Shown one piece after another: positions 29,695 through 53,641 of a stretch of 64,000 nucleotides of DNA. The notes below the pieces were generated by a model. The model worked only from the letters and a program-made list of their open reading frames with translations, was not told the DNA's origin and made no database searches. This DNA comes from Candidatus Heimdallarchaeota archaeon. GTDB taxonomy: Archaea > Asgardarchaeota > Heimdallarchaeia > JABLTI01. Location: positions 1-64,000 of the forward strand of contig JABCTZ010000045.1 in assembly GCA_018238155.1 (NCBI GenBank), given 5' to 3'. Within the stretch, counting starts at the first letter, position 1, and every line of letters starts with the position of its first letter. Both the position numbers and the translations under genes were made by a program.

Positions 29695-29713
29695 TAAAAT
29701 ATGTGAAAAAAAT

Positions 29714-31806: not shown

Positions 31807-32002
31807 GAATAGATATTTCTCCTACAAGATAATAGTGACCACAGTTTTTAAATGCCTCTTTGTTTAGCTGTTCGAAAAGCTAAAAAATTAACTATTCTAT
31901 TAAGTAAAAGATAATACTTTCAGTCATCTCTCTAATAGACTATTTATATATCGAGCTAAACATACTAGTACGTAGAAAAGATCGCTACCAGGAGCATGTA
32001 AA

Positions 32003-33259: not shown

Positions 33260-33358
33260 GGGGTGGTAGTTCAACTATATTTAGTATTACAATCAATTGC
33301 TATCTTTCAAAGAATTTAAATAGCTGATATCTTCATTTCGATTCATTGGTGTTTCATA

Positions 33359-36656: not shown

Positions 36657-36775
36657 TTCCTAATTCAAATTGAATAATAAGTTATAATATTAGCTTTTGA
36701 TATATGTAAATCTCATCCTAAAAGCTTTTCAAGCATACTAAAAAGACTTCTCCAATTTTCTAATGATCCTTGTAA

Positions 36776-37294
36776 CTATTGTGTGTCATCATTCGGAAGA
36801 ATAATTAAATCTTGAAAATCAGTGATTCGCATATTTTTATCCAGCTCCATCTGTTGCTTTTCAGCTTTCTTTTCTTCCTGTATATCCTCTTCTGTTGGAA
36901 ATATCTTCCACCAAAGTTTCTTAATTTGTTTAGGAATGACTATAACAGTAATACCAAATAAAATACCACAAACAAGAAAATATCCAAAAATATTAGAAAT
37001 ATATTTCCAATCTTCGCGTAATAGATTTCCCCATTGAGAAATATCCTCACTATTAACAAATAACCGTAATAATTGACCTGAAAATACCACATAAAGTAAT
37101 GATACAAATGCACCTAATGTAAAAATAAATAGCACAACTAATAGGAGATAACCAATCTTCTTTATGGTATTCGTAAACCATATTTTGGTATTATATAAGA
37201 GAAAAAGAAATAATACATAATTTCTTCTTTGTCTTAGTTTTAGATCTCTCTTAATTAGAAATTCATTAAATTCCCTATTGTTCAATAATGTCAT
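36776..37294 (-). CDS. Hypothetical membrane protein
   Basis: 2-3 hydrophobic segments; GGTGT RBS. Confidence 0.6.
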   Translation of the reverse strand: MTLLNNREFNEFLIKRDLKLRQRRNYVLFLFLLYNTKIWFTNTIKKIGYLLLVVLFIFTLGAFVSLLYVVFSGQLLRLFVNSEDISQWGNLLREDWKYISNIFGYFLVCGILFGITVIVIPKQIKKLWWKIFPTEEDIQEEKKAEKQQMELDKNMRITDFQDLIILPNDDTQ

Positions 37295-37444
37295 AATTAC
37301 ACCTATATAAACAATGGAAAACCTGAGTATAAAAGGCGTTTTATGGCAAAATTTGTAATCAAAAATTACAACAAAAAATGCGATTATATTATAAAAGAAT
37401 ATTCAATTCAGCAAATTGAATTATTAAAGAGCTGATTCTATTAG

Positions 37445-37471
37445 AAAAAAGTTATCCCTAGAAGGGATAAC
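37445..37471 (-). terminator. Hairpin + U-tract terminator
   Basis: GTTATCCCT/AGGGATAAC stem followed by T6 on the minus strand, 20 nt after the 41-aa ORF. Confidence 0.6.
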
Positions 37472-37491
37472 GAAATTTTGAAGATAAAAGA

Positions 37492-37617
37492 TCATTCATC
37501 TTCTTCATCTTCAGGATTAAGTTGTCTGCTGTGATTGTCAATATCATCCTTATAAGCAGAATTGTTGGGATTTTTCACGTTAGATCTTTGATCATTTCGA
37601 GATTGTCTTTTAGACAT
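37492..37617 (-). CDS. 41-aa Asn/Asp-rich peptide, not in ORF track
   Basis: MSKRQSRNDQRSNVKNPNNSAYKDDIDNHSRQLNPEDEEDE; GAGGTGA RBS; own terminator. Confidence 0.7.
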   Translation of the reverse strand: MSKRQSRNDQRSNVKNPNNSAYKDDIDNHSRQLNPEDEEDE

Positions 37618-37880
37618 TATGATTTTCACCTCTTTTTATTTTATTAAAAAGAAACAATAAACCACATGCTTCAAGAGTTTGTCTTTATAAGGAAACAGTT
37701 TTTGTATATATGTTTACACCTTTTCTTGAGCAAACATTACTATGAAGCACTTGAAATTCACCATTTCAAGGCAAGTAATCTAATAATTACTCAATACAAA
37801 AACGTTCAACCAACATTAAAAACCTTTACAAATTCACTTCATGACTTCAACTTTATTTTGTTAATGGCTTGCTCTTTTTT

Positions 37881-38030
37881 CTATTTTCGAATGACCATTG
37901 AGCCATTTTCCAAGGTAATAATTAATGTATCACCTTTTTCAATATTCAATTCTTCGGCAATTTCAAGTGGAATGTTAATCATCAGACTATTATTATTATC
38001 CTGAACTTTTCGCTTAAATTTTATCGGCAA
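37881..38030 (-). CDS. AbrB/MazE/SpoVT DNA-binding protein, not in ORF track
   Basis: RKVQ..NNSLMINIPLEIAEELNIEKGD.L; TTG start after GGTGA. Confidence 0.85.
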   Translation of the reverse strand: MPIKFKRKVQDNNNSLMINIPLEIAEELNIEKGDTLIITLENGSMVIRK

Positions 38031-38106
38031 TATCATTCACCAATATAAAATATGATAATGGAAGCATTTAAATATTATTATTACCAATTGGTTATATGGT
38101 GGTAAA

Positions 38107-39705
38107 ATGTCTTCATATTTCAAAAATTATTATTTCAAAATAACTCTCCCAAAAAGCAAAGAAGAATACTTGGGCAATTTCAAAGATTTAATAGAGACAG
38201 CAACAAGTCAATCACTGGAGAGACTCTGGTCGGAAGAATGGATAATACAGTTAGGAACAACTACGGTAAAAGCACATTCCATTGTTACTGCAGGACGTAT
38301 AAACATTGAACAAGAAGGGGAAAAAATATATCTCCCCTCTTGAGTGCGAATGGGAATAGCAGAACGTATTGGTAGAATTCTAAGAAGTCAATATAAGAGA
38401 ATGAGATGTTTCAATGATTGTTTGAAAATCATAGAAATTGTGGGAGTGAATGAAAGCGAAAGCAAACTCATTAAATTAATGAACCAGACCTTTAAAGGGT
38501 CCAAGAATAAACCATATTATAAGAAAGTGCTACTACTACAAAACATCCGATTGATTAAAAATTGGCAACAAAAAATTAGTGTTGATTTTCATATGTTATC
38601 TTACTGTAACTTAGTGAAACCAATAATTAAAAATTTTGTTTTTCCTTATAGTCCAGATAACTACCGAGAATTAGATTATGTTATTAAACATACCAGTATT
38701 TGGTTTAAAATCAGACTACCAATAACAACCAATTCCAGAAGCATTAATGATTGGGAGTGGATAGAAGGACAAATTCCTATACCTGAAAAACTACAAGAAA
38801 AAATTGATGAAAGCACAAACCAACACCCAAAGAAACCAAGAATGATAATAAAAACACTCAAGGGAGGAAAGGAATATTTCTTTTTCAGTTTCCCTTGGGA
38901 TTTTAAAAGGAAAATAATGGAACGTAAAGAACGAGCTCGCGCTCTTGCTGTCGATCTCGGTTTGAAGAAAATTGCTACCGCAGTAGTTTGCGAAAAGGAC
39001 AAGCAATTATCAAAACCAATCTTCCTCAAGGTTACTTCAAAACAATATCAACATATTGAACGATTATACAAACGCCTTCAGGGGATATCTTTACAAATGA
39101 AAAGAAAACTTGGAGATCATCGAAGACTGCAAGAAGAACAAGCAAGAATTTATAGAAAACTTTCTCGAATAAAACATCAGATTGTACAAACAACTGCTGT
39201 AATTCTCATTGACAAAGCGAAGCAATGGAATTGTAATGAAATCATTCTTGAGGATTTGCGAACTTTCAGTCCTAAGAAGGGATTAAAGAAATGGTCACGA
39301 CGATTAAATGAATGGTTATATGGACAAATTACTCAAATATTAGAGTATAAAACAAAGGAAGAAGGAATTAAACTACTAAAGGTTGCTCCTTGGGGAACAT
39401 CTAATCATTGCTCAAGATGTACTAACACTCAAGGTTTGAAAGTGATAAATCCAACTAATCTCACACCAAAAAAAAGTGGGAGATGGTTCTATTGTCCAAA
39501 TTGTGGATTCAACGTTGATAGAGATTACAATGCAGCTTTGAATATTTTCCGTGCAAAATTCATCAATTATCGGAAAATAAAAAGTCTTAAAGACACCAGC
39601 CCTATCCCCTATACGGAGATAGGAATCCCTTCGCCCAACTGTTCTTGGCGAAGGTCCAGAAATGACCTAACAACTACTCAAGTGGTGTTAGTGACTGGGG
39701 GGTAA
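38107..39705 (+). pseudogene. tnpB: Large TnpB/Cas12f-like nuclease split by an in-frame TGA (38341-38343)
   Basis: 78-aa and 453-aa ORFs are in one frame (YLPS*VRMGIAE); RuvC VDLG, LEDL, CxxC/CxxC, DRDYNAA. Confidence 0.85.
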
Positions 39706-39800
39706 AGAAAATTCTTAACCTAAATGAAAAGAACGGTTAGGTTTAGGACCTTGCGTTTTAAAAAGAGTTGCAATAAAAAACAAATTTGGACAATAGGTGA
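39595..39800 (+). ncRNA. Putative omega/re-RNA overlapping the 3' end of the large tnpB (ends approximate)
   Basis: Consecutive hairpins CCTATC/GATAGG, CCTTCGCC/GGCGAAGG, CTAACA/TGTTAG at the position expected for a TnpB guide scaffold. Confidence 0.5.
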
Positions 39801-39857
39801 TTTTTTATACCATAGTAAGCATTTATAAAATCTAAGTGAAAAAATTCTCTTAGTTCT

Positions 39858-39945
39858 GCGGGGATAGCCCAGCACGGTCAAAGGCGCAGGATTTAGGCTC
39901 CTGTCTCGTAGGAGTACGCGCGTTCAAATCGCGTTCCCCGCACCA
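39858..39945 (+). tRNA. tRNA-Leu(TAG)
   Basis: GCGGGGA/TCCCCGC acceptor, CAGGA-TT-TAG-GC-TCCTG anticodon arm, long variable arm, CCA. Confidence 0.95.
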
Positions 39946-40046
39946 ATCACACTATTTTCTTTTATTTATTGTTTCTTTCATTCATTGTTTTAAACTAAGA
40001 TGACTTTAAGAAAGAAAAAATGTACTATTATTACAGGAGAAATTAG

Positions 40047-41630
40047 ATGCCTGCATTCTTACGTTGGGATTCAGATCCATTACTACTCGATCCAACACCA
40101 CTAAAGCAAAATACTTGGATAACAGCAAATAGATTACTAGCGCAAGAACAACAAGAAAAATTTCTTACTGCATCAAAATATCTCTTTTTGTATCCTATTT
40201 TGATCCGCAAAATTGATTTTATTTCTGGGGAGCGCATTTTACAATCCTTTCCATATATCGTACTAGATCAAGAGTGGGCATTAAGAATTAGAAAACAATC
40301 ACTTGCTCTTGCAGAGAATTCTCACTACTATTTTATGGGTTCCAATATTTCTAAATCTGTTCGTGGTTGGCAACAGAGAATCATTTCTTACTTGGATGAA
40401 CAACAGCGACTTCCCTTTCCGCTGTTCCGGTTGGTTCCATCCTTTGAGGATTTTTTTCAAAGGAAACTAGCAGTACAATTCCAATCTGCTCGCGGAAAAA
40501 ACTATTCCATTCCAACAACTCTTACTAAGCAATTAGCTTATTTGTGTGGAGTTGTTAATGGTGATGGTCATCTCCACCGACATTGGCTCAGAGTTGTAGA
40601 TGAAACGAAAGAACATATTGAGTTGATTTCTGATTTATTTGAAGAATTATTTAGTGATTCAGGTGAGATTTTTCTTACTGGCAATGCTTGGAATGTCGAA
40701 TTACGTTCTTCTTCTGCTGTTCGATTATTTAATTTCCTTACGGACCAGACGATTCAGGGAGCAAAATATGATTCACTTAGAGAACCGTTTGTATTTCAAA
40801 AACTGGGTGAACCATATCGAAGTTTTTATTGGAGAGGTGTAATGGATGCAGATGGTTCCTTTAAGCAACACATTTCATTTGGTAGTGCAAGTGAAAAATA
40901 TGTAAAAGATTTTAACGACTATCTGCATTCTATTGGTATTCAATCTAAACAGGGAAAAATAGGTACAACAGCTTTTAATCTCACTATACCGGCACTTTAT
41001 CGTTTGCAGTTTATCAAACGAATTGGGGTAAATAATCCAAAAAAAAGAGAAGATATGTTGCAATTATTTTCAAAAATTCGATGCAAATTTAAGGGATTAA
41101 ATCAAAGAAAATTGCTCGAAGGATTGTATTTCAACTTTCTTGAAATCCCTGCTCTTAATGTAAGAGGACTTGCTATTCGAATCAAACAATTAAGAGGGGA
41201 GAAGACAATAAAAGAACGCAGTCAAGAACTTAGTATTGCAACAAATCAGTATCAAGCCTATGAAAAAGCAACTCGAGCAATTCCGATTAGAACAGTACAA
41301 AGGTTATTTCTGAAATCTCCAAAAGACCTAATGAATCTCTTATCAAAACAAACTAGTCTTTTGTATCAAATAGCATCTTCACAATCAATCAAACTACCAA
41401 TACAAGTTACAAGTAGTATAATTGAATTATTGAGCTTATTTGAGCCAACTTCGAATTATGTTAAAATTCTTCTTGAATTACCTCAAATTCAACAATATGT
41501 AAATGAAATATTTGGATTACCACTAATAAACAATCGACTAAACAGTAGATTACTAGTTACTTTTTGTAGAACTTTTGGATTGTATGAAAAACCAAGTGTA
41601 TCAGAAATTGATATTGAACCTTTTTGCTAA
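40047..41630 (+). CDS. LAGLIDADG endonuclease-like protein with unknown N-terminal domain and XRE-HTH
   Basis: LAYLCGVVNGDG and WRGVMDADG motifs; IKQLRGEKTIKE..QEL.I....YQAYEK..R.IP HTH. Confidence 0.85.
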   Translation: MPAFLRWDSDPLLLDPTPLKQNTWITANRLLAQEQQEKFLTASKYLFLYPILIRKIDFISGERILQSFPYIVLDQEWALRIRKQSLALAENSHYYFMGSNISKSVRGWQQRIISYLDEQQRLPFPLFRLVPSFEDFFQRKLAVQFQSARGKNYSIPTTLTKQLAYLCGVVNGDGHLHRHWLRVVDETKEHIELISDLFEELFSDSGEIFLTGNAWNVELRSSSAVRLFNFLTDQTIQGAKYDSLREPFVFQKLGEPYRSFYWRGVMDADGSFKQHISFGSASEKYVKDFNDYLHSIGIQSKQGKIGTTAFNLTIPALYRLQFIKRIGVNNPKKREDMLQLFSKIRCKFKGLNQRKLLEGLYFNFLEIPALNVRGLAIRIKQLRGEKTIKERSQELSIATNQYQAYEKATRAIPIRTVQRLFLKSPKDLMNLLSKQTSLLYQIASSQSIKLPIQVTSSIIELLSLFEPTSNYVKILLELPQIQQYVNEIFGLPLINNRLNSRLLVTFCRTFGLYEKPSVSEIDIEPFC

Positions 41631-41835
41631 AAAGTTCTAAATAAATATAAAACTCTATCACACAAATCTTACAAAGTATATGAGGGACGTATTTCCACAG
41701 CATTTTTATCATTTAGAACGGTTTAGATGTGTTTTTCTTGATTTTAAAGCAGTGTATATTTTTCGAAAGTCCAAAAATTTATCCTTTCCTGTTCAGAAGG
41801 TGAGAAAGTCCGATTTTTTTCCATTGAAAAAAGAG

Positions 41836-42605
41836 TTATATTTCAGAAAGCCCAGCAATTTTCTGCTTTTTTATGTTAATTCTTTGGCAAATTTCTCTAT
41901 ACAAGCAATCTGTAGTGAATATATCACACAATCTTCTTTCTTTTTTATTGATTGACAGATTAACATGTCTTTTCGTATTTTATTCAAATATATCTCAAAG
42001 GCTTGAATGTTTTCAGAAGTTACTTCTGCTTTCTGGAATTGTCCTGTGAAATAATAGTAAACACCAATTTCTGTTACTTTTTTAATATTGATTAAATCCT
42101 GGTGTGGTAGTATATTAGAAATCAAAACGGTATAGAATAATAGTTCTTCTTCATCAAATTCCCCAGGATATGGTTTGTATTCAACTATTCGACAATTTCC
42201 TTGATCATCTAATTGATCTATTCTATCTATTTGTCCTCTATACTTTGTATTCTTTAGAAAAAATTCTACAGCTACTGGTTCCCAAAAAGTCTTTTGTTGT
42301 TTATATCTTTTTATTTCGCTGTCTATGAATTGTTTCTTCCACTGTTCATTCTTATCTGATTGTCCCAATAGAGGATAGAGATTATTTTGTATATCTTCGC
42401 CAAATTTCTGAAAGAATTTTTGCAACCAATGATGTCGTTCTATACCCTCTGCTAAATTTGATTCATAATCAGAATAATCCTTTCTTACACTTTTTTCTGT
42501 TTGTTTATTTAATTCTTTTAACAGATAGAATTTGAAAGGGCATTTTATGTATGCAATAAATTCCGTCTTACTTAGATTAGAACTTCTCTTGAGCAATTTC
42601 TTCAC
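41836..42605 (-). pseudogene. Cas4-like PD-(D/E)XK nuclease with a 2-nt insertion near the C-terminus
   Basis: S......Y..CP, G...H, E, GQIDRID, VEYK; removing TG at 41925-41930 restores C-DIFTTD-C-LYREI-C. Confidence 0.8.
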
Positions 42606-42671
42606 TAATTCTCGTTGTGAATTTTCTTTTTAAAGTTCAAAATAAGTCATTTAGCTCTTTTTAAGCATTTT

Positions 42672-43364
42672 TTGTCATTAGAATATATGACACTACTAGA
42701 AAAACACAAGGAGTTTGGTAATGATATGATTAAATTGACTAATGTAGAACAATCTATTGTTTATTTCTTTTTATGGCGAATCATCAATTTAGAAGATGAT
42801 TGGTTTGAAGGAGGAATTAAGAATCTAGCACAAAAACTAGGCCGGCATGAGAAATCCATTGCAAATTCAATTAAATCCTTAGAATCAAAGAAAATGATTG
42901 CTACCTCAAAAATCAAAAATAGAGTTTGCTTAAAACTCTCACTTTCTGATGATGAACTTTATTCTAGATTAGCATTCATTAGTGATACTTTTTGCGCTCC
43001 TATATCCATCCAAGACTTGAAAGAGGATCTTGAGAATGAAAACAAGCGATTAGAAGAAGAAATAAAAAAATATGATAAATTGCTATCAATCCAAAAAGAA
43101 GAGGACAGGATAATTGAATCTGTTGCTAAACAAATATCCAGAAAGGATATTGAAGAATTAGCTAATCGAATTGTTGTTACTAGGACTTATGCTAATATTA
43201 ACAAAACTCTTGATGAAATTATTCGAGAGGAATTAGAGAATTTTCGAGCTAAGATGTTTTCGAAGTATGGAAATATCGATGTTAATAAACCTCCAGAAAC
43301 CAAATTGGATGGTTCTTTAATTTACGATAATTTTTGGTTGAAAGATAAAGAGGGAGTATCATAA
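42672..43364 (+). CDS. wHTH + coiled-coil protein
   Basis: IKNLAQKLGRHEKSIANSIKSLESKKMI HTH, followed by heptad repeats. Confidence 0.75.
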   Translation: MSLEYMTLLEKHKEFGNDMIKLTNVEQSIVYFFLWRIINLEDDWFEGGIKNLAQKLGRHEKSIANSIKSLESKKMIATSKIKNRVCLKLSLSDDELYSRLAFISDTFCAPISIQDLKEDLENENKRLEEEIKKYDKLLSIQKEEDRIIESVAKQISRKDIEELANRIVVTRTYANINKTLDEIIREELENFRAKMFSKYGNIDVNKPPETKLDGSLIYDNFWLKDKEGVS

Positions 43365-43378
43365 AGGTATTTTGAGGT

Positions 43379-45262
43379 TTGAGATTGGAAAATAAAATAC
43401 AAAAAGAGATTTTGAATTATATTACTAAGCAATCAAATAATAATCCTGTAACGATCAAACAATTGGATGAATATTTAGGATATTCTAACAGTCTTGTTCA
43501 CAGACATACCAAAATTCTAGAGAGGGCAGGAGTAATAGAAGGAAAACGAGTTGTACAAACAAAGGGCGGAGTTACCCTTTACAAGTTACCAGTTAAAGTA
43601 TGGCCTGATTATCTTGGAAGGAAATGTTTTGATTGTCATAATAAGAGTGCGATTAATACTTGCACTTTTCACGAGGAACTAGCAGAATTTGGAATAATTG
43701 ATGAACTGAACAGAGTTGGAGTGAAATTAACAAAAAATACTTTTGCTTGTAGTGATTTCATTGTCAAGAAAACCCATTGGAAACGAACTAAACTAGATGA
43801 CTTCTTAGATAAGTGTAGAGTTATTACACAGACTAAAATTGGATTTGAGATCAGTTATCATTGTCCGTATTGTAATGCTGAATTTGTATCATTAGGTAAT
43901 GGATTTATTGCAAAATTTGGGAGTTCAGTTTTACGTTGTAATCAATGTGAATCCTTTTACAAGATTCTTTTTGATACTAAACGAGAAGTGTTTATTGTTC
44001 ATTATAATAAAGAAAAAGGAATAGAGTACAAAAGGAATTTTGTTAATAAAACCAGGCTTGAAGAACCTGAGAAACTATACTCAAGTGATAGCTATGGTAT
44101 TGTTATTCATGATTTTTCTGACTGTGAATTTAATTTCAGAACAAGAACTTTGGCAGTTACTAATTGGATTGGAAAACTAGATGAATTGAAGTATATTGTT
44201 GCAAAAAAAGAACAGGATTATAAAGAGTTACAAGTATTACTTGAAACAAAAGGTTTCAATGAAATTAATTTGATATTAGGAGCAGATAAATTAGTTAGTC
44301 CACCTCCAACCAAACAACAAGTAGGCATGCTTAGATTATTACGAGTAATGATGATTATTAACAAAGAATTTTGTATTGCTATGTTAATAAGCAGGATAAC
44401 TGTGATTGAAAAAATACATTTTCTATTCAGAAGACAAAAAGAAGTACTGGTAAGAAGAGCTGTTACTAGAATTGAAGAAATAATAAAGGAAGTAGAAAAC
44501 AAAACATGGTTAATACCAAAAGAGTGGAATAATTATGAGATGAGAGCAGGTAAGGAGATGTGGAGAGTTATTGGTAACTATTTAAAGTCAATTGATGTAT
44601 TCTTTCCAGGAAGAGTAGATAGTAGATTGGTGAATGATCCCTCTATTCCTCATAGAGTATATTTTGCCTTTTCAGCGATTGATTCATTGATAAATGGTAC
44701 GTATAGCAAAAGTGGAGAATTTGTTAAAGAGTATTGTTCTGAGATTGGATTTTGTTGGGATGGGTTGCCAGGTATCTGCCATGGGAAAACTTCTGGTGGA
44801 GTTTTTGGATTGCATTTAGATTTGAGAGAGCAAGAAAAAATTCTAGTGTTACCTTATTTACTAGCTGCAATACTAGAGAAAAGAATAGATATCAAAGATG
44901 TTCAATATTTACGAGGGAGAAAGAGAGAAAAGATTTACTATGTTCGACCTGAATCAGAATTGGATGAACAATTAATGAAAATAGTAGAAGAAACGTTAAC
45001 TGGATACCTCAACGATAGAATTTGTAAAACGGTTATTAGAGACTATTACTTGCACTCCAAGCAATGGTTAAATGATCTAATTAGAAAAAGTAATTTTCAT
45101 GAAGTAGAACATCATGGAGTTGATTATCAACCATGGGCTATAATAAATGAGCGTGTATGGGAAATGATGGGAGGTAAAGAAAGAGAAAAATTAATTTGTA
45201 AAATACAACAAGAGCATGTGAAAATGGAGTTCAAACCACTTACTGTAATACAAATAAACTAG
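43379..45262 (+). CDS. Cas1 homologue fused to N-terminal wHTH and Zn-finger domains
   Basis: YEMRAGKEMW...FPGR, AIDSLINGTY, GICHG, LHLDLREQ correspond to Cas1 EG.AA..YW..F..R, N.LLN.GY, GF.H, L..DL.E. Confidence 0.75.
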   Translation: MRLENKIQKEILNYITKQSNNNPVTIKQLDEYLGYSNSLVHRHTKILERAGVIEGKRVVQTKGGVTLYKLPVKVWPDYLGRKCFDCHNKSAINTCTFHEELAEFGIIDELNRVGVKLTKNTFACSDFIVKKTHWKRTKLDDFLDKCRVITQTKIGFEISYHCPYCNAEFVSLGNGFIAKFGSSVLRCNQCESFYKILFDTKREVFIVHYNKEKGIEYKRNFVNKTRLEEPEKLYSSDSYGIVIHDFSDCEFNFRTRTLAVTNWIGKLDELKYIVAKKEQDYKELQVLLETKGFNEINLILGADKLVSPPPTKQQVGMLRLLRVMMIINKEFCIAMLISRITVIEKIHFLFRRQKEVLVRRAVTRIEEIIKEVENKTWLIPKEWNNYEMRAGKEMWRVIGNYLKSIDVFFPGRVDSRLVNDPSIPHRVYFAFSAIDSLINGTYSKSGEFVKEYCSEIGFCWDGLPGICHGKTSGGVFGLHLDLREQEKILVLPYLLAAILEKRIDIKDVQYLRGRKREKIYYVRPESELDEQLMKIVEETLTGYLNDRICKTVIRDYYLHSKQWLNDLIRKSNFHEVEHHGVDYQPWAIINERVWEMMGGKEREKLICKIQQEHVKMEFKPLTVIQIN

Positions 45263-45272
45263 GAAGGAAAGG

Positions 45273-45875
45273 ATGGATGAAATTGTGCCACTAATAGAGG
45301 AATTACAAAAACTTACAGATTTATCAAAAGATTGCTTAGAAGAACTATTAGTTGAACAAATCAAAAGAATTGTGGAAGAGGATACTGAAATAATTTATCA
45401 AATAATATATTTATTTGTAACAGAAAAAATAGATCTAGGATATTCTAAGGAGTACTCGTTATCAGAACTCCAGGAGAAATTACCTTGGAAAAAGAGTCGA
45501 CTGATAGAGAAATTACAAAAAATAGTGGAAGAAGGTGTACTTGTACACAAAAAAAGAAAATACAAACTAAAAAAAGAGAATGAGCTAGTAAAGAGAAAAT
45601 GGAACTATTATAATGAAACAGGATTTCAAGAAAAAGAGAAGAATCGTGAAATATGGAAATTGATACTAAGGAAAAAGGAATTGGAAAAGGCATGTAATGA
45701 GAAATTGAAAATAGAGGATAAAACAAGATTTAGGGAATTAAAAGTGAACGAGGAAAAGATATATAGAAAAGAGATAATTGACGAGATAAAATCTTTCTTT
45801 AATGCAAAACAACCAACATTAGAATTTCTAGAAAAAAACATAATAAGAACAATGGGTTATAAGAAAAATAATTAG
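45273..45875 (+). CDS. wHTH-domain protein
   Basis: SLSELQEKLPWKKSRLIEKLQKIVEEGVL....KYKL. Confidence 0.7.
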   Translation: MDEIVPLIEELQKLTDLSKDCLEELLVEQIKRIVEEDTEIIYQIIYLFVTEKIDLGYSKEYSLSELQEKLPWKKSRLIEKLQKIVEEGVLVHKKRKYKLKKENELVKRKWNYYNETGFQEKEKNREIWKLILRKKELEKACNEKLKIEDKTRFRELKVNEEKIYRKEIIDEIKSFFNAKQPTLEFLEKNIIRTMGYKKNN

Positions 45876-46064
45876 AAAGAGAAAATTCTGCTTCAAACAA
45901 CAACTCGCAATAAACTCTAAAACACCTATATCCAGAAGGGTGATGGGGGGGAAAAAGAAGGAAAAAATCACAATAAGTATATATAAAATTCACTCTTAAA
46001 AATACAGCAGATAATCAAATCTCTTAAATAATATACAAGAGCTGTAAGTGTCAAGGGATAGAAA

Positions 46065-47243
46065 ATGGATGACTTATTAGAAAAGGAATTAAAAAGGCCT
46101 TCTTTAATTAAAAATCCAAGAATCTTAGATTTAAAATATCTACCAAAGAAACTTCTCCATAGAGAAGACGAACAAAGAATGTTAATCAAATATTTCAAAC
46201 CAATTATTGAAAATTCTGGTAAGTATTCTCAAAATGTAACAATTGTTGGTCCTGTAGGAACTGGAAAAACAGCTATTGCTCTTAAATTTGGTGAAATGAT
46301 TAAAGTATATTCAACACAAAAAAGTATTAACTTAGAATATGTTCATGTAAATTGTCGTAGAGCTCGATCAAGTTTTCTTACTATACTTGAGATTGCGAGA
46401 AAATTTAATCCGAATATACCAGTCAAAGAATTTAAGCCAGATGAAATTATTAACATGCTTGTCAATTTACTTAACCAAAGGAATTCTTTTTTGATTATTA
46501 CATTAGATGAAATTGATTTTATCATTCAGAAGGAAGGTTCAGATTTTCTTTATGATTTGACCAGGCTTACTGATGATGAACTGGATGAGAAGGAACGTAT
46601 ATCTCTTATTACAATAGCTCGTGAAAGTGAATTTAGAAAATTATTGGATGATAGTACTCTTAGCACTTTGAGACAAAATATAATTTCATTGGTACCGTAT
46701 AATGAAGATCAATTGAGAGATATAGTAAAAGATAGAGCGAATGAAGCTTTTTATGGAGACGCGGTTTCAGCAGAAGCTATTGATTTAATTTCAGATATAA
46801 CTTCAAAAAAAGGAGATGCTAGATTTGCTATTGAATTGTTGGAACGTGCTGGTATGTATGCGGATCACAAACAGTCATTAAAAGTTTTACCAGAACATGT
46901 AAGACATGCAAATACATTAGTTCATCCTATAATTAGACAAGAAATTGTTACAGATTTAACAAAGAAACAACAAATTATTCTATTAGCTACTGCAAAACAA
47001 CTTCTGTCAACTAATAAAGCATATGTGACTTTAGCTGATGTAAAAACTGTTTACAAAGAACTGTGTAAGGATTATAAGCTGCCAATAAGTGAACATGCAC
47101 AAATATTAGAATATCTACAACATTTAGAGTATTGCAATTTGATTGCAATAAAATATAGTAAAAAGAAAAAGCAACAGACCTTGATTAGTTTGTTGGATGT
47201 TTCAGCTGAAATAATTAAGAAAACAATTATGGAACAATTATAA
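46065..47243 (+). CDS. cdc6: Orc1/Cdc6 replication initiator
   Basis: YLP..L.HRE, GPVGTGKT, VNC, LDEID, GDAR.AI, C-terminal wHTH. Confidence 0.93.
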   Translation: MDDLLEKELKRPSLIKNPRILDLKYLPKKLLHREDEQRMLIKYFKPIIENSGKYSQNVTIVGPVGTGKTAIALKFGEMIKVYSTQKSINLEYVHVNCRRARSSFLTILEIARKFNPNIPVKEFKPDEIINMLVNLLNQRNSFLIITLDEIDFIIQKEGSDFLYDLTRLTDDELDEKERISLITIARESEFRKLLDDSTLSTLRQNIISLVPYNEDQLRDIVKDRANEAFYGDAVSAEAIDLISDITSKKGDARFAIELLERAGMYADHKQSLKVLPEHVRHANTLVHPIIRQEIVTDLTKKQQIILLATAKQLLSTNKAYVTLADVKTVYKELCKDYKLPISEHAQILEYLQHLEYCNLIAIKYSKKKKQQTLISLLDVSAEIIKKTIMEQL

Positions 47244-47303
47244 AAAACTGCAAATGACGTAAATGCAATTAAAATTAAAGATGAAGATACGACTGAAGAT
47301 AAA

Positions 47304-47846
47304 TTGGTGAAAGATGTAAAAAAACTTCTAAAAATGTCATTTGAAGGAAATTTCTTTGACGTTAAAAGTGCATATGATAAAACAAATAGAGCAGAAATGA
47401 CCAAAGATATAATCGCTTTAGTAAATTCATCAGAAGAAAACAATAATACAGCATATGCAATAATTGGTATTGTAGAAAAAAATCAAAAATTCGTTTCGGT
47501 AGAAAATGTGGAGAAAATAGATATCATAGAACAAAAGATTGTGCATTGTATAATACATAATACTAATCGAAAAATAAATCTACAAATAAGAAAAATAAGA
47601 ATCTATGAACTCTATCAATGGCAACAAAATAACGAAATTACAGATGAGATAGTTTTTACTGAAGAGCAGAAAAAACTGGAAAGCAAAGAGCAAATATTAG
47701 TAATACAATTAAAGAGAGAGCCAAGAGTGGTTTATGAATTGGCAAAGAAAACAGGACCATATGAAAAAGGGAGATCATGGAAAAGAATTGGGTCACATAC
47801 AGATGAATTAACACAAGATGATAGAGAAAAGCTAATGAAAATTTAA
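47304..47846 (+). CDS. Schlafen/AlbA_2 domain protein (possibly 5'-truncated)
   Basis: EGNFFDVK...KDIIALVNS...IIGIVE...RIGSHT. Confidence 0.7.
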   Translation: MVKDVKKLLKMSFEGNFFDVKSAYDKTNRAEMTKDIIALVNSSEENNNTAYAIIGIVEKNQKFVSVENVEKIDIIEQKIVHCIIHNTNRKINLQIRKIRIYELYQWQQNNEITDEIVFTEEQKKLESKEQILVIQLKREPRVVYELAKKTGPYEKGRSWKRIGSHTDELTQDDREKLMKI

Positions 47847-47923
47847 ATCAATAAAGGATTAATTCTAAGAGACTTGAAATCAGAAAGAAATGGTAATATT
47901 CTGATCGTAATTAAGATATCTTT

Positions 47924-47965
47924 TCTCGTAGGAGTTCACGTGTTCGAATCGCGTCCCCCGCACCA
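47924..47965 (+). repeat. 3' fragment of a tRNA-Leu (att-like repeat)
   Basis: TCTCGTAGGAGTTCACGTGTTCGAATCGCGTCCCCCGCACCA; 5 mismatches to 39904-39945. Confidence 0.9.
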
Positions 47966-48056
47966 GTTCTTGATGTCTATAATAAGATATTAATAATCTA
48001 TTGAAAACTAGGTTAGTGTAATATTAATAACTATTGATTTCACGAAGTGAACTACT

Positions 48057-48734
48057 TTGGGTAAAACTATTTTACAAACTACTGATTTGGTCAAAATTTT
48101 CGCTGAAGGAACCCCATTAGAAGTTCACGCTTTGCGTGGTGTTAATCTAGAAATAGAGCAAGGAGAAATTGTAGCTATAATGGGTCCATCTGGTTGTGGA
48201 AAAACTACTTTGTTAAACATGATTGGTGGTTTAGATAAACCCACCTCAGGTACAGTAAGCATCAATTATCAAGAAATCACAAATTATACTGATAAAGATA
48301 TCACCGATTTTAGAAAGGAAAATCTTAGTTTTATTTTCCAATTCTTCAATCTTTTTGAAGTCTTAACCGCAGTTGAGAATGTTTCTTTACCCCTTCTCCT
48401 TAAAGGAGAACCAACCACGGTAGCTCAAGAAAAAGCCAAAGTCATTTTGCGAGAGGTAGGAATTGGTAGTCGATTGTATAATCTTCCTAACGAAATGTCT
48501 GGTGGTCAGCGTCAAAGGGTAGCTATTGCTCGTTCATTAATTACCAACCCTAAAATTGTTCTTGCAGATGAACCTACTGGTGACTTGTCCAGTGTAATCG
48601 CTAAAGATATTATGAAATTGTTTAGAAGGTTAAATGAGGATCTTGGTCAAACATTTGTTCTAGTTACTCATTCTGAATTAATCGGTTCTCTTTGTGATAG
48701 AATCATTAAGATGCATGATGGATTAATTATTTAA
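48057..48734 (+). CDS. ABC ATPase, LolD/MacB-like
   Basis: GPSGCGKT, MSGGQRQR, LADEPTG, VTH. Confidence 0.93.
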   Translation: MGKTILQTTDLVKIFAEGTPLEVHALRGVNLEIEQGEIVAIMGPSGCGKTTLLNMIGGLDKPTSGTVSINYQEITNYTDKDITDFRKENLSFIFQFFNLFEVLTAVENVSLPLLLKGEPTTVAQEKAKVILREVGIGSRLYNLPNEMSGGQRQRVAIARSLITNPKIVLADEPTGDLSSVIAKDIMKLFRRLNEDLGQTFVLVTHSELIGSLCDRIIKMHDGLII

Positions 48735-48813
48735 TGTATGAACAGATCTTTTTTCTTTCAAAACATTCTGAAAATGAGAAACAGTTTTAAGTTTTAACTT
48801 TTAAGTAGTAGGT

Positions 48814-50304
48814 ATGTCAGATATTGAAAAAGGTTCTGAAGAAGCAGAACTCGAATTGGAATTTGCTCCAAAAGATGATACTATCGAAATTGAATCAAAA
48901 ACATCTTTTTGGAATGTTTTCAAATGGTCAATGTATGATTTAGCAAATACTATTTATTCGATGGTCATTGTTTCACTTATTATTAATCAGTATATTCTAA
49001 TAATTGGACAAGTCGAATATGGATTATCTTACACTCAATCAGATGCTATTTTTAACATTGTTTCAGCTGTCATGCAAATTATTGTAGCTATTGGTATGCC
49101 TATTATGGGTGCCTTGTCAGATAATGCTGGAAAAAGAAAACCATTTATAATTGTTTTAACTGGAGTGATTTTGCTTTTTGCAAGTCTACTAGGTATTTAT
49201 CACAGTTTAGCTTTGGTATTGGTATTTTATGTAATAGCTAATATCGCTTATCAGTGGAGCTTAGCATTCTATGATTCTATGTTAGCATTTATAGCCAATC
49301 CTAAAGATGTAGGGAAGGTTGGTGGATTTGGTGTTGCTTTTGGATATTTTGGAACTTTAATTGGTATGGGCGTCATGTTAGTTTTACAAGATGTATTGAA
49401 GTGGGGTGCCCCTGTTAGTAGTGCTGATACAATTGGTGAGCTATCGTACGGGTATTATGGCAATCCTTGGACTCCTGTAATTACCATGGCATTATTTGCT
49501 GTGTGTGCTATACCATTCCTTTTTGTTAAAGAAAAACAAAAACCTGGAAAGATGGCTTCTGCTATTGTTCTTGCAAAACAATCCCTCAAACAAGTTGGAC
49601 AAACATTCAAAGAAATTAGAAAACATAAAGAGATGTTCAAGTTCATCATTGGCTATTTCTTAGTTGTAGATGTTGCCAATATTATTGTAGTAAAGATGTT
49701 TCTTATAGTTAGAGATGGTCTATTAATGGATCAAACTTTTAGTATGATTTTCATCATCATATCGACTGTTTCTGCTGTAGTATTTACTTACTTTATTGGC
49801 ATGATTGCTGATAAATATGGAGGAAAAAAAGCCTTCTTTGTTGTAGGTGGTCTTTGGGCAATCGCAATCATTCTTGGTGTCATACTAATATTCTGGGCTG
49901 CTCCAATAACTGTTGGTCCCAATTTCGCATTCATTGTAGTTCTACTCATGGGTATTGTTGCAGGACCTGCACTTGGTGGTACATGGGTTGCACAAAGAGC
50001 AATGGTAGTTGAATTAGCTCCTAAAGAGAAATTTGGAGAGTATTTTGGTTTTTCAAAACTAAGTGGCAAACTTTCTGCTTCCTTAGGACCATTAGTATGG
50101 ACTGGAATCTTTGTTCTCTATGAAGTATTAGCTACACTATTCTTTGGTGAGCATAATTACAATCTCTACAAAGCTTATGGATATGCAATGCTTACTGTAG
50201 GAATTATTATGGGTGTTGGATTGATAATAATTAGTTTTGTCAAACCAGAACGTAAACTGATTATTGAAGGACAATCACTCGAAGAAAGTGAACCTGCGGA
50301 ATAA
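48814..50304 (+). CDS. MFS transporter (Atg22/UMF1-like)
   Basis: W.MYDLAN, GALSD..G.RK, about 12 TMs. Confidence 0.88.
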   Translation: MSDIEKGSEEAELELEFAPKDDTIEIESKTSFWNVFKWSMYDLANTIYSMVIVSLIINQYILIIGQVEYGLSYTQSDAIFNIVSAVMQIIVAIGMPIMGALSDNAGKRKPFIIVLTGVILLFASLLGIYHSLALVLVFYVIANIAYQWSLAFYDSMLAFIANPKDVGKVGGFGVAFGYFGTLIGMGVMLVLQDVLKWGAPVSSADTIGELSYGYYGNPWTPVITMALFAVCAIPFLFVKEKQKPGKMASAIVLAKQSLKQVGQTFKEIRKHKEMFKFIIGYFLVVDVANIIVVKMFLIVRDGLLMDQTFSMIFIIISTVSAVVFTYFIGMIADKYGGKKAFFVVGGLWAIAIILGVILIFWAAPITVGPNFAFIVVLLMGIVAGPALGGTWVAQRAMVVELAPKEKFGEYFGFSKLSGKLSASLGPLVWTGIFVLYEVLATLFFGEHNYNLYKAYGYAMLTVGIIMGVGLIIISFVKPERKLIIEGQSLEESEPAE

Positions 50305-50409
50305 ACCGATATTTATGAAATTTCCTTAGGGAAATTTCCATTCTCATTTTTTCTAAGAGAAAGATTTTTACTTGTTTTAATTAAAATACAATAAAGGTGT
50401 ACAAAGGAA

Positions 50410-50649
50410 ATGTCAGAGAACAAATTGGTTGCAAAAGGACCTGTGATTGATCGTATTAAAGAAGAAACAAATGGTTTGAATATTACCAATGAAATCAAAG
50501 AACAGATTATTGATTATTTTGAATCTCTTTTATCCCAAGAGATTAAAAAAATGTCTTCCTTAGCTGTTGATGTTACTGGATTACAAGGAAAAAGAACAAT
50601 TCAAGAAAAGGATTGGATATTTATTCGAAAAATACTTGAAAATAAATAA
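50410..50649 (+). CDS. Divergent archaeal histone-fold protein
   Basis: Three helices ending GKRTIQEKD (cf. GRKTI..ED). Confidence 0.7.
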   Translation: MSENKLVAKGPVIDRIKEETNGLNITNEIKEQIIDYFESLLSQEIKKMSSLAVDVTGLQGKRTIQEKDWIFIRKILENK

Positions 50650-50670
50650 TTATATAATGTTTTGTGAAAT

Positions 50671-50991
50671 TTATTCCATTACTCTAGTTTCAACTTCTCT
50701 ACTCTTCTTGATATCGAAACGTCCGCCTCTAAGTGAAGAAACCTGATCAATCAGGTTAGAGAGAGTTTCAGATAATCGTTTATCTGTAGCATTTTCAAAA
50801 ATAGCATTTAAAATATCTAAATATGATACTAAATCTTCATATGTTTTTGAATTGAGAAATTTTCCCCGAATCTCAATCAAATCTCTCAATAAATCTTTTT
50901 GATTAAACCTAGCGACAACTATAGCTCTATCCAAATGATCGACTAAAGAATATTTGTCAGTTATGAATAACCATTGGATTTCGGTTGCCAT
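50671..50991 (-). CDS. Hypothetical protein
   Basis: 106-aa helical ORF. Confidence 0.6.
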   Translation of the reverse strand: MATEIQWLFITDKYSLVDHLDRAIVVARFNQKDLLRDLIEIRGKFLNSKTYEDLVSYLDILNAIFENATDKRLSETLSNLIDQVSSLRGGRFDIKKSREVETRVME

Positions 50992-51115
50992 TTTTCTTAG
51001 CTCTTTATGATCGGTTTAATTCTTACATATGTATAGTGCATATTCTTAATTAAATCTAGTCATTTGACAAAAAATAAATAGTTTTTTAGAAATTAGTCCT
51101 TTGATTGTCTATGAA

Positions 51116-51703
51116 TTATCTTTTCTTCTTTTTTAATTTAACAACATCTCCAAGTGTTGCTGATTTTGCTGAAGAGCTAGTATAAATTGGTGCACTTGCT
51201 TCTTCTCGCAAAGATAGATTCAATTTTCGTTCAATTTTCACTATTAAATTGAGTGGGGGATTAAATTCACTTTTCTCTATTTTTTGCAAGAGAGACATTT
51301 TTTCATTAATCATTTGAGCAAAATCCTCTAAAGAGAGATTTTTTGCTTTTCGCGCATTTTTTATTACTGTCCCATAGTCTTCTACAAGTACTTTATCAGA
51401 ATCCAATGAGTCTCGGTATCTTCTTCGCCTAGTTGTTGGTTGTTGTTGAGTTCCTGTTTTTACGTTTACGTGAGAAACACTAGGTCCCTTTCCACCAGGA
51501 TTGCTTTTTACAAAGGTTACTGCGGTTTCCTCGGAATCATCTATTGTTCCTTGAGATCTACTTGATACCTTTGTTCCAAATTTAGAACATTCTCGACACA
51601 AGAGCATCCTTACATTATCAACTTTCGATTCAACTAAATCGGGTCCAACGAATGACCCACACATTTCGCAGCTCATGTTATGCTTCATCCTTTTTTGCTT
51701 CAA
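51116..51703 (-). CDS. Archaeal multiprotein bridging factor aMBF1
   Basis: CEMCG...C..C Zn ribbon + XRE HTH + TLGDVV; true start is probably MSCEMCG. Confidence 0.9.
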   Translation of the reverse strand: MKQKRMKHNMSCEMCGSFVGPDLVESKVDNVRMLLCRECSKFGTKVSSRSQGTIDDSEETAVTFVKSNPGGKGPSVSHVNVKTGTQQQPTTRRRRYRDSLDSDKVLVEDYGTVIKNARKAKNLSLEDFAQMINEKMSLLQKIEKSEFNPPLNLIVKIERKLNLSLREEASAPIYTSSSAKSATLGDVVKLKKKKR

Positions 51704-51772
51704 GCAAGTTTATTTTGTATAGATATTTTGTTTTTATTTATTAAAACTAATGTAGTACCGCTTTAATGTTTT

Positions 51773-53641
51773 TTATTCATCAATTTTTAATTTTGACATA
51801 TTAATTTCTTCTAATATCTCCCCATCTTCTATCATTAAAATTCGATCTGCTTGGGTTGCAACTTGTTTATTGTGAGTTACTAATAGAATAGTGGTTCCTT
51901 TTTCCTTATTTATTTTTCTTAAATAGCCAGTAATTTGTTGTCCAGTTACTGAATCTAAATCACCTGTTAATTGATCTGCTACTATTAGTGATGGGTCATT
52001 GATTAATGCTCGAGCAATTGCAACCCTTTGTTGTTGTCCTCCTGAAAGTTTATCGGGGTACTGGTTTGCAAATCTTTCTAATTCCACAATCTTCAAAATT
52101 TCAAGGGCTTTTTTTCTTGCTTCTACAACAGGTATTTTTGCCATTTCTGCAGGCATAGATACATTCTCTAAAGCTGTCAAATCAGCAAATAATTGATAGA
52201 ATTGAAATACCAGACCAATTTCGTCCCTTCTAAATTCTGTTAGTTCATTATCATCCATAGTTGCGATATTTTTTCCGTTTAGATATACTGTTCCTTTATC
52301 GGGTGAATCTAATCCTGTTAGAATATTTACTAATGTTGTTTTTCCCGCTCCTGAAGGACCCATTATAGCCAAAAATTCTCCAGGAATTACTTCAAAGCTC
52401 ACACCACGCAAAGCATATACACGTGATTTTAGCAATCTGTATGTTTTATATACATCTTCTACAACAAGTACTGCTTCTGTTTCTATTGTTGTTTTTACTG
52501 TAACATCAAGCGTTTGAACAACTTTTCCTTTTCTTATCGTAAAATAGGAAATATCATAAAAGAATTCACTCCAAATTCTTAGTAGTTCCATTTGCGTAAA
52601 GAGTTTCAATATTATCTGTTCTATTTTCTTTGAAACGCTAGAAGTCTCATCATAATTATCAAGTAACTCAATTTTTCTTATGTTTTCAAACCATAGCTGA
52701 ATTGCTTCATTAGATTTATCTGTTAAACGCAGAATTTCAAGAATTTTTTCCTTTTGTGAATTTTCGGTTATTATTATTTCTAGATTACTATCTTCCATTT
52801 CTTTTACTTCTGAAACTATTGCATCTTCAGCGCTGTTTTGTCTAGCTAATTGTCTTCTTATATCATGTATATTATCAACAATCTCAAATGATTTCCCTTT
52901 CAGCAGGTCCAATGCTTCTTCAAAATTCTTTGACTTGCTATTACATTTACACAAGTTTTTATTCATATCATTTAGAAGTGTATTAAATTCATTGAAAAAT
53001 ACTTTTGATTTCTTAGTATATTGTTTTGTAAAATTAAATAATATCATCTCATCAAGCAACTGAACAATATTCTTTTCTGAGTGAATTTCAAATTGAATGT
53101 CACTCATTTCAACGAATGATGTTTTACAACCAGAATGATCTAAAAGATAAATTGTTGATTTTTTTATTATATCAAAATAGTTCTTTGTCCAATTACCTAT
53201 TAGTGAATAAACATTTTCTGAGAATTCGGCTTTCTCTACTTCAATTAGAGCAAGTTTACTGCTTAATATATTAATTGACTCTTTCAGCTCTCGATTTTTT
53301 TTGATATTCCTTGAAAATCGATTCACTAAATTTAATAGGTATTCATTATAGTGAGCATCTATTCTTGTTCGTATTTCATTTAGTGTTTTTCTTGCAATTT
53401 CTTCAATTGTTCTTGAAGCAATATTTGAATTCTTTCCAGAACACAAATCAGTATTAAATCTTGCATTTACCAAAAGAAAAGAAGTCAATTCTTCAAAATG
53501 AAAATCTAGTGGTTGAAATGTTTTCAATGCTTTTATAACAGATTTTTTGAATTGTTCGGTTTCTTTTATTGCTATTGGGTTAACAAAATAGATTGACCAT
53601 AAATTCATATAGGATTTCAATTTTTCTTTTTGTTGATGCAC
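51773..53641 (-). CDS. ABC ATPase with long N-terminal helical extension
   Basis: C-terminal GPSGAGKT, LSGGQQQR, IVADQ (Walker B E->Q), VTH. Confidence 0.85.
   Translation of the reverse strand: MHQQKEKLKSYMNLWSIYFVNPIAIKETEQFKKSVIKALKTFQPLDFHFEELTSFLLVNARFNTDLCSGKNSNIASRTIEEIARKTLNEIRTRIDAHYNEYLLNLVNRFSRNIKKNRELKESINILSSKLALIEVEKAEFSENVYSLIGNWTKNYFDIIKKSTIYLLDHSGCKTSFVEMSDIQFEIHSEKNIVQLLDEMILFNFTKQYTKKSKVFFNEFNTLLNDMNKNLCKCNSKSKNFEEALDLLKGKSFEIVDNIHDIRRQLARQNSAEDAIVSEVKEMEDSNLEIIITENSQKEKILEILRLTDKSNEAIQLWFENIRKIELLDNYDETSSVSKKIEQIILKLFTQMELLRIWSEFFYDISYFTIRKGKVVQTLDVTVKTTIETEAVLVVEDVYKTYRLLKSRVYALRGVSFEVIPGEFLAIMGPSGAGKTTLVNILTGLDSPDKGTVYLNGKNIATMDDNELTEFRRDEIGLVFQFYQLFADLTALENVSMPAEMAKIPVVEARKKALEILKIVELERFANQYPDKLSGGQQQRVAIARALINDPSLIVADQLTGDLDSVTGQQITGYLRKINKEKGTTILLVTHNKQVATQADRILMIEDGEILEEINMSKLKIDE

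Follow-up and report, generated by a model that had tools for sequence, protein, structure and literature searches.

Which enzyme moves a small gene cassette that lies against the end of a tRNA gene in a Heimdall archaeon, and from where does that enzyme take its target? Cas1 is the enzyme common to CRISPR adaptation and casposons, and the origin of its target specificity is an open question. The stretch of DNA analysed here (the window) comprises positions 1-64,000, forward strand, of contig JABCTZ010000045.1 in assembly GCA_018238155.1, from Candidatus Heimdallarchaeota archaeon (Asgardarchaeota; Heimdallarchaeia; JABLTI01). It encodes a Cas1-like protein, P0001, within a cassette that also encodes a LAGLIDADG homing endonuclease (LHE) and a Cas4-like nuclease. 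We found that P0001 is a true but extremely diverged Cas1-fold protein with a full catalytic set, and we consider below whether it may be the enzyme that joins the cassette to its target.

A diverged Cas1-fold protein with a full catalytic set

The gene and the parts of its product were located as follows.

43379-45262, + strand: Cas1-like protein P0001, 627 aa, an uninterrupted open reading frame (ORF) with a TTG start
43379-43594, + strand: winged helix-turn-helix (wHTH), residues 1-72, matched by Pfam HTH_24 and, in structural comparison with VIA, by wHTH proteins of the ArsR/MarR type at Z ~11
43625-43750, + strand: zinc module 1, residues 83-124, with C83, C86, C95 and C124 in invariant alignment columns
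43862-43948, + strand: zinc ribbon 2, residues 162-190, with C162, C165, C187 and C190 in invariant columns and a weak Pfam Zn_ribbon_PaaD match over residues 159-191
44090-44278, + strand: Cas1 N-terminal beta domain, residues ~238-300, where the VIA alignments with 4n06_A, 7cr6_C and 4xtk_D begin (model residues 238-240)
44285-45259, + strand: Cas1 catalytic alpha-helical domain, residues ~303-627, placed by VIA (Z 17-19; root-mean-square deviation, rmsd, ~3.1), by hhalign residue mapping and by invariance across the superfamily
44537-44539, 44780-44782, 44819-44821 and 44828-44830, + strand: catalytic codons of E387, H468, D481 and E484, in that order

A preliminary description, made from the letters of the DNA, had read this gene as a Cas1 with an N-terminal wHTH, two zinc-binding modules and an intact E-H-D/E triad. 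Every motif that it named was found in place in an intact ORF of 627 codons: CFDC (C83, C86) and CPYC...CNQC (C162, C165, C187, C190) in the zinc region, and YEMRAGKEMW (E387), AIDSLINGTY (D435, N439), GICHG (H468) and LDLREQ (D481, E484) in the Cas1-like part. The wHTH, proposed for the first ~70 residues, was recovered both by Pfam (HTH_24 on residues 5-54, E 8.9e-6) and by structure, with residues 1-72 fitting solved wHTH proteins at rmsd 1.3-2.5. Both zinc modules are present as well, and all eight of their cysteines are invariant in an alignment of 24 homologues, yet the first module is not of the C..H kind that had been proposed. Because C124 is invariant, and several of the 24 homologues have Y or N in place of H98, module 1 is a Cys4 site with C124 as its fourth ligand. 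Further invariant columns of the same alignment are W383, N384, P410-G411-R412, R416, D435, H468, D481 and E484.

The Cas1 relationship of P0001 is visible to fold and profile-profile methods only. A Pfam scan of the whole protein returned HTH_24 and the weak zinc ribbon and no Cas1 match, and an NCBIfam scan gave no match above noise. HMMER profiles of the whole family and of its Cas1-like part, run against PDB sequences, found wHTH proteins or noise and no Cas1, and a protein atlas search with the zinc region (residues 73-236) gave only matches below 0.9, to clusters without names. By contrast with these sequence searches, the AlphaFold2 (AF2) model of P0001, built on the family alignment (mean predicted local distance difference test score, pLDDT, 82.4; predicted template-modelling score 0.79), was clearly of the Cas1 kind: the best 50 Foldseek matches in the PDB were all Cas1 or casposase (4n06, E 1.8e-7). 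VIA gave Z 19.1 to Archaeoglobus fulgidus Cas1 (4n06_A; 274 residues, model residues 240-624) and Z 18.8 to the Methanosarcina mazei casposase (6opm_B; rmsd 3.1 A over 241 residues). Residues 462-480 of the model, the loop around H468, are disordered and of low confidence.

Profile-profile alignment led to the same active site. When the Cas1-like part was compared by hhalign with 23 canonical Cas1 sequences from the same archaeal class (Heimdall), the match had a probability of 79.7 and an E of 1.5e-5 over 201 columns, and E387, R412, H468, D481 and E484 were paired with the E, R, H, D and E columns of Cas1. The triad thus proved intact, and the comparison of fold and active site that the preliminary description had suggested led to Cas1 and casposases, not to an unrelated fold. 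The counterparts of the P0001 set are E141, H208, D218 and D221, the catalytic residues of Escherichia coli Cas1 (PMC4046053), and E162, H232 and E247 of the casposase (PMC6977970).

Relatives of P0001 are few. A word-indexed search of 5.8 billion proteins returned 27, all of ~620-645 aa, and every one with a named source came from a Heimdallarchaeota metagenome-assembled genome. When 1.84 billion cluster representatives were searched exhaustively with HMMER, only 57 relatives were found, among them forms of 660-700 aa, proteins of 800-1600 aa that carry the catalytic domain, a fusion of a PD-(D/E)XK nuclease with a Cas1-like part (P0164) and short forms, one of which (P0192) passes the Pfam Cas1 model. 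Three relatives lie above the Pfam Cas1 (PF01867) cut-off of 22.3 bits: P0021 with 25.6, P0027 with 32.1 and P0192 with 31.5 bits. Across 28 superfamily members, the 800-1600-aa forms included, E387, R412, R416, N439, G465, H468, D481 and E484 are near-invariant at an overall identity of only ~20-30%, and E/D exchange occurs as a conservative substitution at the catalytic positions of family and superfamily. Judged from these alignments, conservation of the catalytic residues is well beyond chance. The source genome (G000; 46 contigs, 4.08 Mb) also encodes a canonical Cas1, on contig C15, which scores 251.6 bits to Pfam.

The cassette and its insertions at tRNA genes

Around P0001, whose copy in the window lies on contig C6 of G000, the following features make up the cassette.

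40047-41630, + strand: LHE, 527 aa, with an N-terminal domain of unknown type, the motifs GDG (172-174) and DADG (267-270), and an XRE-type HTH
41760-41870, + strand: array of three iterons, GAAAGTCCAA, GAAAGTCCGA and GAAAGCCCAG, starting at 41766, 41805 and 41847
41836-42605, - strand: Cas4-like PD-(D/E)XK nuclease (called ORF 41871-42605; Pfam PDDEXK_1, E 7e-13)
42672-43364, + strand: HTH230, a 230-aa protein of wHTH and coiled coil
45273-45875, + strand: P200, a 200-aa protein of wHTH and coiled coil, starting 10 nt past the Cas1-like stop codon

The source genome holds three full-length Cas1-like genes of the 627-aa family (C6, C43 and C13), 57-58% identical, and all three lie within a matching five-gene unit, in the order LHE (527-562 aa), divergently oriented PD-(D/E)XK nuclease, HTH protein (~200-230 aa), Cas1-like protein and a protein of ~190-200 aa. 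The same unit was found in sister species and around relatives of 34-48% identity from other metagenomes, and, with its genes rearranged, around two further subfamilies (662-717 aa and ~665 aa) and a form of 843 aa that comes from a different family within the phylum. Genes for a ~700-aa NERD-domain protein and a ~225-aa HEAT-repeat protein stand upstream of LHE at L032 4352-7183 (C43), L058 14171-16985 (C13) and L098 3600-6428, which gives that subtype a conserved block of seven genes. On the LHE side, TnpB is the immediate neighbour in the window (38344-39705), at L097, L099 and L105, and on C63 of a further genome, G086. In the window and G086, tRNA-Leu lies between TnpB and LHE; the TnpB-LHE interval contains no tRNA at L097, L099 and L105.

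The AF2 model of LHE (pLDDT 91) matched PI-PfuI with Z 22.3 and I-DmoI with Z 19, its profile matched PDB 1dq3 (E 1.7e-8), and both its GDG and DADG motifs are invariant in the family alignment. The nuclease family carries the Cas4 signature, namely C22, three C-terminal cysteines, D127 and E-x-K144. In the window copy, three-frame translation revealed a 2-bp insertion in a TGTGTG run that shifts the frame and removes the C-terminal cysteine motif; the conserved C-terminus, CDIFTTDCLYREICQRI, continues in the +2 frame at 41836-41960 on the - strand. The gene is either a pseudogene or the victim of an assembly error, and the Cas4-like partner of the Cas1-like gene on C43 (C43:10740-12623) is intact. 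HTH230 and P200 showed no recombinase or other catalytic signature.

The iterons, 2-4 direct repeats of TTCGAAAGTCCGA at a spacing of 39-42 nt, lie where the LHE and Cas4-like genes converge, between their 3' ends. Their place and orientation are kept in five of six loci, namely the window, C43, C13, L097 and L098 (L032 ~9056-9120; L058 ~12014-12145; L097 5078-5214; L098 ~8445-8500). Repeats and intervening sequence are conserved position by position, whereas the proteins of these loci are only 47-58% identical. The array could be a set of protein-binding repeats, an origin or a recombination site.

The LHE and the Cas1-like protein travel together. A superfamily profile search of the source genome found eight Cas1-like genes, all of them with an LHE-family gene at a distance of 2.4-8 kb. 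No full-length LHE there lacks a Cas1-like partner; LHEs that stand alone are fragments, and most LHE copies away from an intact cassette are pseudogenes. At the same tRNA-Leu in G086, LHE is followed by a 1378-aa protein that is itself Cas1-like (hhalign 99.9%, E 2.8e-31), which rules out reading G086 as an LHE island devoid of a Cas1-like gene. From the eight pairs and the pair in G086, we conclude that LHE and Cas1 form an obligate partnership. Homology between the source genome and G086 stops within the LHE gene (window 40573) and returns 45 nt after the P200 stop (45920), and the unit from LHE to P200 has therefore been exchanged as a block.

Five of the Cas1-like genes in the source genome are of other subfamilies (C17:167692-168507, C19:25049-26014, C17:11130-12131, C42:37325-38329 and C11:85694-86671) and lie in ORFs of 501, 704, 710, 1228 and 1395 aa. 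Each has an LHE-family gene as its neighbour, and in-frame stops interrupt several of these neighbours. At L104 (G082:C16), 7933-11868 encodes a 1311-aa protein beside two LHE genes, and what it has in common with the 627-aa family is the N-terminal region of wHTH and zinc modules (residues 23-204).

The island that holds the cassette has these further features.

34157-39857: stretch preceding the tRNA and missing from G088, G087 and G089, with a HEAT/AlbA_2 protein, small ORFs and TnpB (38344-39705)
39858-39945, + strand: complete tRNA-Leu(TAG), 98% to the G086 copy against 89% to the host type of G088
46065-47243 and 47304-47846, + strand: Orc1/Cdc6 and a Schlafen-type ORF of 180 aa, island cargo common with G086 and outside the conserved cassette
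47919-47965, + strand: partial 3' copy of tRNA-Leu, 47 nt (positions 42-88), 40/47 identical to 39899-39945, at the right edge of the inserted DNA

The insertion can be read from empty sites. In the sister species G088, G087 and G089, tRNA-Leu is followed directly by the sequence found after 47965 in the window; 34157-47918 is therefore inserted DNA. G086 has the same TnpB-tRNA-Leu-LHE order as the window, and there the Cdc6 and Schlafen parts, split in the window, form a single protein of 595 aa. Of its host-type tRNA-Leu, G086 keeps only the 5' part (positions 1-34; C63:28623-28659), 6.8 kb upstream and cut in the anticodon loop. The host gene has thus been split, and the complete island tRNA-Leu stands in as its replacement. 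Relative to the host type (G088:C303:4709-4796), the island tRNA-Leu has compensatory changes at 34:42 in the anticodon stem (A:T, not G:C) and at 7:66 in the acceptor stem, and from its sequence it is possibly a replacement allele immune to the endonuclease. An insertion of the simple Campbell type (39946-47965), bounded by two tRNA 3' copies, was considered and rejected, since one attP x attB event would leave unexplained both the split at position 34 of the G086 host tRNA and the upstream block that G088 lacks. The locus may be one element that carries a tRNA, or two elements around a rebuilt tRNA.

Other copies lie at other tRNA genes. Those on C43 and C13 abut an intron-containing tRNA-Ala(GGC) and tRNA-Val(GAC), respectively, and the cassette adjoins a tRNA end at all four loci with a readable flank (tRNA-Leu, tRNA-Ala and, in C13 and L098, tRNA-Val). 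C43 carries a tandem array of tRNA 3' pieces; no 5' piece of a host tRNA was found when the flanks of the C43 and C13 elements were searched. In addition, 35-40-nt copies of the tRNA-Ala 3' end are scattered through the source genome (C36:813-846 and 3921-3959; C21:866-905; C11:65379-65417 and 69362-69399; C43:124-160 and 3016-3050), a distribution that suggests many past insertions at tRNA ends. In G090 (C22:17342-17478), the 5' part (1-38) and 3' part (42-88) of a tRNA-Leu lie 52 nt apart, which is probably an intron-containing tRNA-Leu paralogue.

A candidate enzyme for joining the cassette to its target

When every sizeable ORF of the window island and of the elements on C43 and C13 was scanned with Pfam, no tyrosine or serine recombinase, no PolB and no transposase other than TnpB was detected, and the only two PF00589 matches in the source genome lie on other contigs. 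P0001 is the sole cassette protein with a DNA-joining fold. No Cas2 was found among the neighbouring genes, and no spacer-repeat array was found in window 37000-52000, the intervals between iterons being conserved, not variable. We give a probability of about one half to the reading that the Cas1-like protein joins the cassette DNA into the target, while LHE chooses and cuts that target.

In the division of labour that we infer, the cassette would build and remodel islands at tRNA genes. LHE would pick the tRNA-gene target and cut it, the Cas4-like nuclease would trim the DNA ends, and the E-H-D-E site of P0001, as a putative integrase, would join 3'-OH ends to the target in the manner of Cas1 and casposases. 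The wHTH and zinc modules of P0001 would hold it on specific DNA sequences together with HTH230 and P200, and the iterons would be the best candidate binding sites. The preliminary description had also supposed that the N-terminal modules could recognise the ends or the target, in place of Cas2 and a leader, and so make this protein a sequence-specific integrase. The Cas1 fold, the full catalytic set, the lack of Cas2 or an array nearby and an insertion with no other recombinase agree with the integrase part of that proposal; for site specificity, LHE is a more obvious source than the N-terminal modules.

Several observations weigh against an integrase role for P0001. Its C-terminal part stays under the Pfam Cas1 cut-off (12.3 bits, E 0.096, against 22.3), so that it is assigned to Cas1 by fold, by profile-profile alignment and through transitive matches. 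No terminal inverted repeats (TIRs) were found under any boundary model (the window island, the outer ends in G086 or the C43 element), the best end-to-end alignments scoring no higher than the shuffle mean. The flanking repeat is an imperfect 47-nt tRNA piece (40/47) that ends at CCA, with differing sequences past CCA, and not a target site duplication (TSD) of 14-15 bp. Moreover, the host tRNA of G086 is split in the anticodon loop, and at C13 the distal tRNA pieces and the adjacent full gene represent different tRNA-Val alleles, so that the joints are unlike known Cas1 chemistry. The island may also be decaying, as the frameshifted Cas4-like gene and the split Cdc6-Schlafen gene would suggest, and because of that frameshift the window copy may be immobile now. 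Finally, the LAGLIDADG endonuclease is intact and could drive homing alone.

Were that so, the island would move by a break in the empty tRNA allele and repair from the occupied one, and the Cas1-like and Cas4-like proteins would serve another purpose, for example in capturing or exchanging cassettes, in excision or the formation of circles, or in the repair of ends. The invariance of both LHE catalytic motifs and a fold like those of I-DmoI and PI-PfuI fit this explanation, as do the lack of TIRs and short TSDs and the decay into pseudogenes of most LHE copies off intact cassettes, which is expected of homing genes. A split host tRNA-Leu in G086 beside an altered, complete island tRNA-Leu is also how a cleavage-immune replacement is expected to look, and Wu et al. 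(PMC8813620) inferred that HeimM2 had recruited a homing endonuclease to integrate at specific sites. Homing nevertheless leaves unexplained why each full-length LHE has a Cas1-like partner of conserved active site, why tRNA 3' pieces stand in tandem at C43 and how one cassette type comes to lie beside three different tRNAs, and we regard it, as the sole means of movement, as rather unlikely. Returning to joining by P0001, its fullest form is that LHE, the Cas4-like nuclease and the Cas1-like protein constitute a third Cas1-based DNA insertion machine beside casposons and CRISPR adaptation, in which LHE makes a site-specific break in the tRNA gene, the Cas1 relative, placed on iteron DNA by its own wHTH and zinc modules and the two wHTH partners, joins the cassette into that break, and the element brings a tRNA, or part of one, that its endonuclease could not cut; we advance this form tentatively, with the odds against it.

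The neighbourhood invites a different explanation, in which the cassette is array-less, CRISPR-derived or defence-type cargo of a defence island, with the Cas1-like and Cas4-like proteins processing foreign or damaged DNA. The neighbouring proteins include NERD, NACHT, MmeI-type restriction-modification, Cdc6-Schlafen, HEAT-AlbA_2 and AbrB/MazE proteins, each genome has multiple paralogues, and non-adaptive CRISPR derivatives, ARAMP among them, are known to contain Asgard Cas1 homologues (PMC8730458). However, a homing endonuclease, whose recognition site is long, would make a poor effector of defence, PADLOC matches are confined to HTH parts, Cas5, Cas7 and effector genes are absent, and the position of the cassette against a tRNA end at all four readable loci does not fit cargo of this sort; a defence role seems distinctly unlikely. 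It is very improbable that P0001 is a DNA-binding regulator or relic that retains the Cas1 scaffold and has lost catalysis. The large N-terminal wHTH and zinc DNA-binding region, the poorly modelled loop around H468 and the decay of neighbouring island genes could be taken in that sense, but the four catalytic residues, with R412, R416 and N439, are conserved in family and superfamily, and the three paralogues in the source genome are all full length. Loss of catalysis has been inferred for Cas1-solo group 1 of Methanomicrobiales, which lacks the full catalytic set (PMC4046053), unlike the P0001 family.

Relation to known Cas1 systems

The primary source on the Cas1 homologues of Asgard archaea (aCas1) is reportedly Makarova et al. 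2020, CRISPR J 3:156. According to the published summaries, aCas1 is an extremely diverged Asgard Cas1 found outside CRISPR arrays, with distinct Cas4-like and other nucleases alongside (PMC8730458; PMC10691335), and TnpB often adjacent, as in the window, L097, L099, L105 and G086; P0001 resembles it in all three respects. A role as the transposase of unknown mobile elements has already been proposed for aCas1 (PMC10691335, in summary), so that the general idea of an Asgard Cas1 acting as a transposase is in print. What is new, relative to aCas1 as these summaries present it, is the strict LHE pairing, the iterons, the exchange of the cassette and the empty and occupied tRNA-Leu alleles, details that open the system to experiment.

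Casposons offer the closest parallel in target choice. Insertion by family 2 casposases takes place at tRNA 3' ends and requires a C-terminal HTH (PMC6977970). Like the family 2 casposons of Methanosarcina mazei and Aciduliprofundum boonei (6opm), the window cassette combines a Cas1 fold of the same catalytic residues and an HTH, essential in the casposase and present in P0001, with tRNA 3'-end sites that include tRNA-Leu, and it has neither Cas2 nor a CRISPR array. The differences are also clear: identity is ~13%, the HTH and zinc modules of P0001 are N-terminal whereas the casposase HTH is C-terminal, the cassette has no PolB, TIRs or 14-15-bp TSD, and its Cas1-like protein is partnered by a homing endonuclease and a Cas4-like nuclease. 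The architecture of P0001 is less unusual than the preliminary description implied, for NitAL212-C1, a casposase of family 3 from Nitrosomonas sp. AL212, bears a zinc-binding domain at its N-terminus (PMC4046053). That protein likewise has the zinc domain fused N-terminal to Cas1, with an HTH also present; it differs in being bacterial, in its single zinc-binding domain and C-terminal HTH, and in belonging to a PolB-encoding casposon with TIRs.

With CRISPR Cas1 and Cas4 (A. fulgidus Cas1, 4n06; the type I-C Cas4-Cas1-Cas2 complex, 8d3l), P0001 has in common the two-domain fold, the same active site and a functional link to a Cas4-type Fe-S nuclease, which in the superfamily extends to a natural fusion, P0164. 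It differs in the lack of Cas2, array and leader and in its 235 extra N-terminal residues. For Heimdallarchaeum, Wu et al. reported elements at tRNA sites and the co-option of a homing endonuclease, and they never mentioned Cas1 (PMC8813620). By description, HeimM2 and the other elements are similar to the islands studied here, being small Heimdall islands at tRNA genes with a homing-endonuclease homologue proposed for site-specific integration (PMC8813620).

For a distant branch of Cas1, the locus provides a testable setting, with a defined architecture, partner genes, the iterons as a candidate binding array and a tRNA-Leu target in two allele states. If the enzyme integrates DNA, it would be a Cas1 integrase that works without PolB, TIRs, Cas2 or a leader, and a compact tool for site-specific insertion would become possible. 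If it does not, the strict pairing of endonuclease and Cas1 still calls for explanation. Should the three proteins form a third insertion machine, they would be a natural 'meganuclease plus integrase' system and a living case of a Cas1 with an outside specificity factor, a part played for Cas1 later by Cas2 and the leader.

Upstream of the island, window 29455-33274 is a further insertion relative to G088, G087 and G089, with a truncated LHE gene (31003-31806, 267 aa) and an ORF of 399 aa (29714-30913). These genes resemble those of the G086 element with LHE and the giant Cas1-like protein, and by this resemblance the stretch is probably a decayed element of that type.

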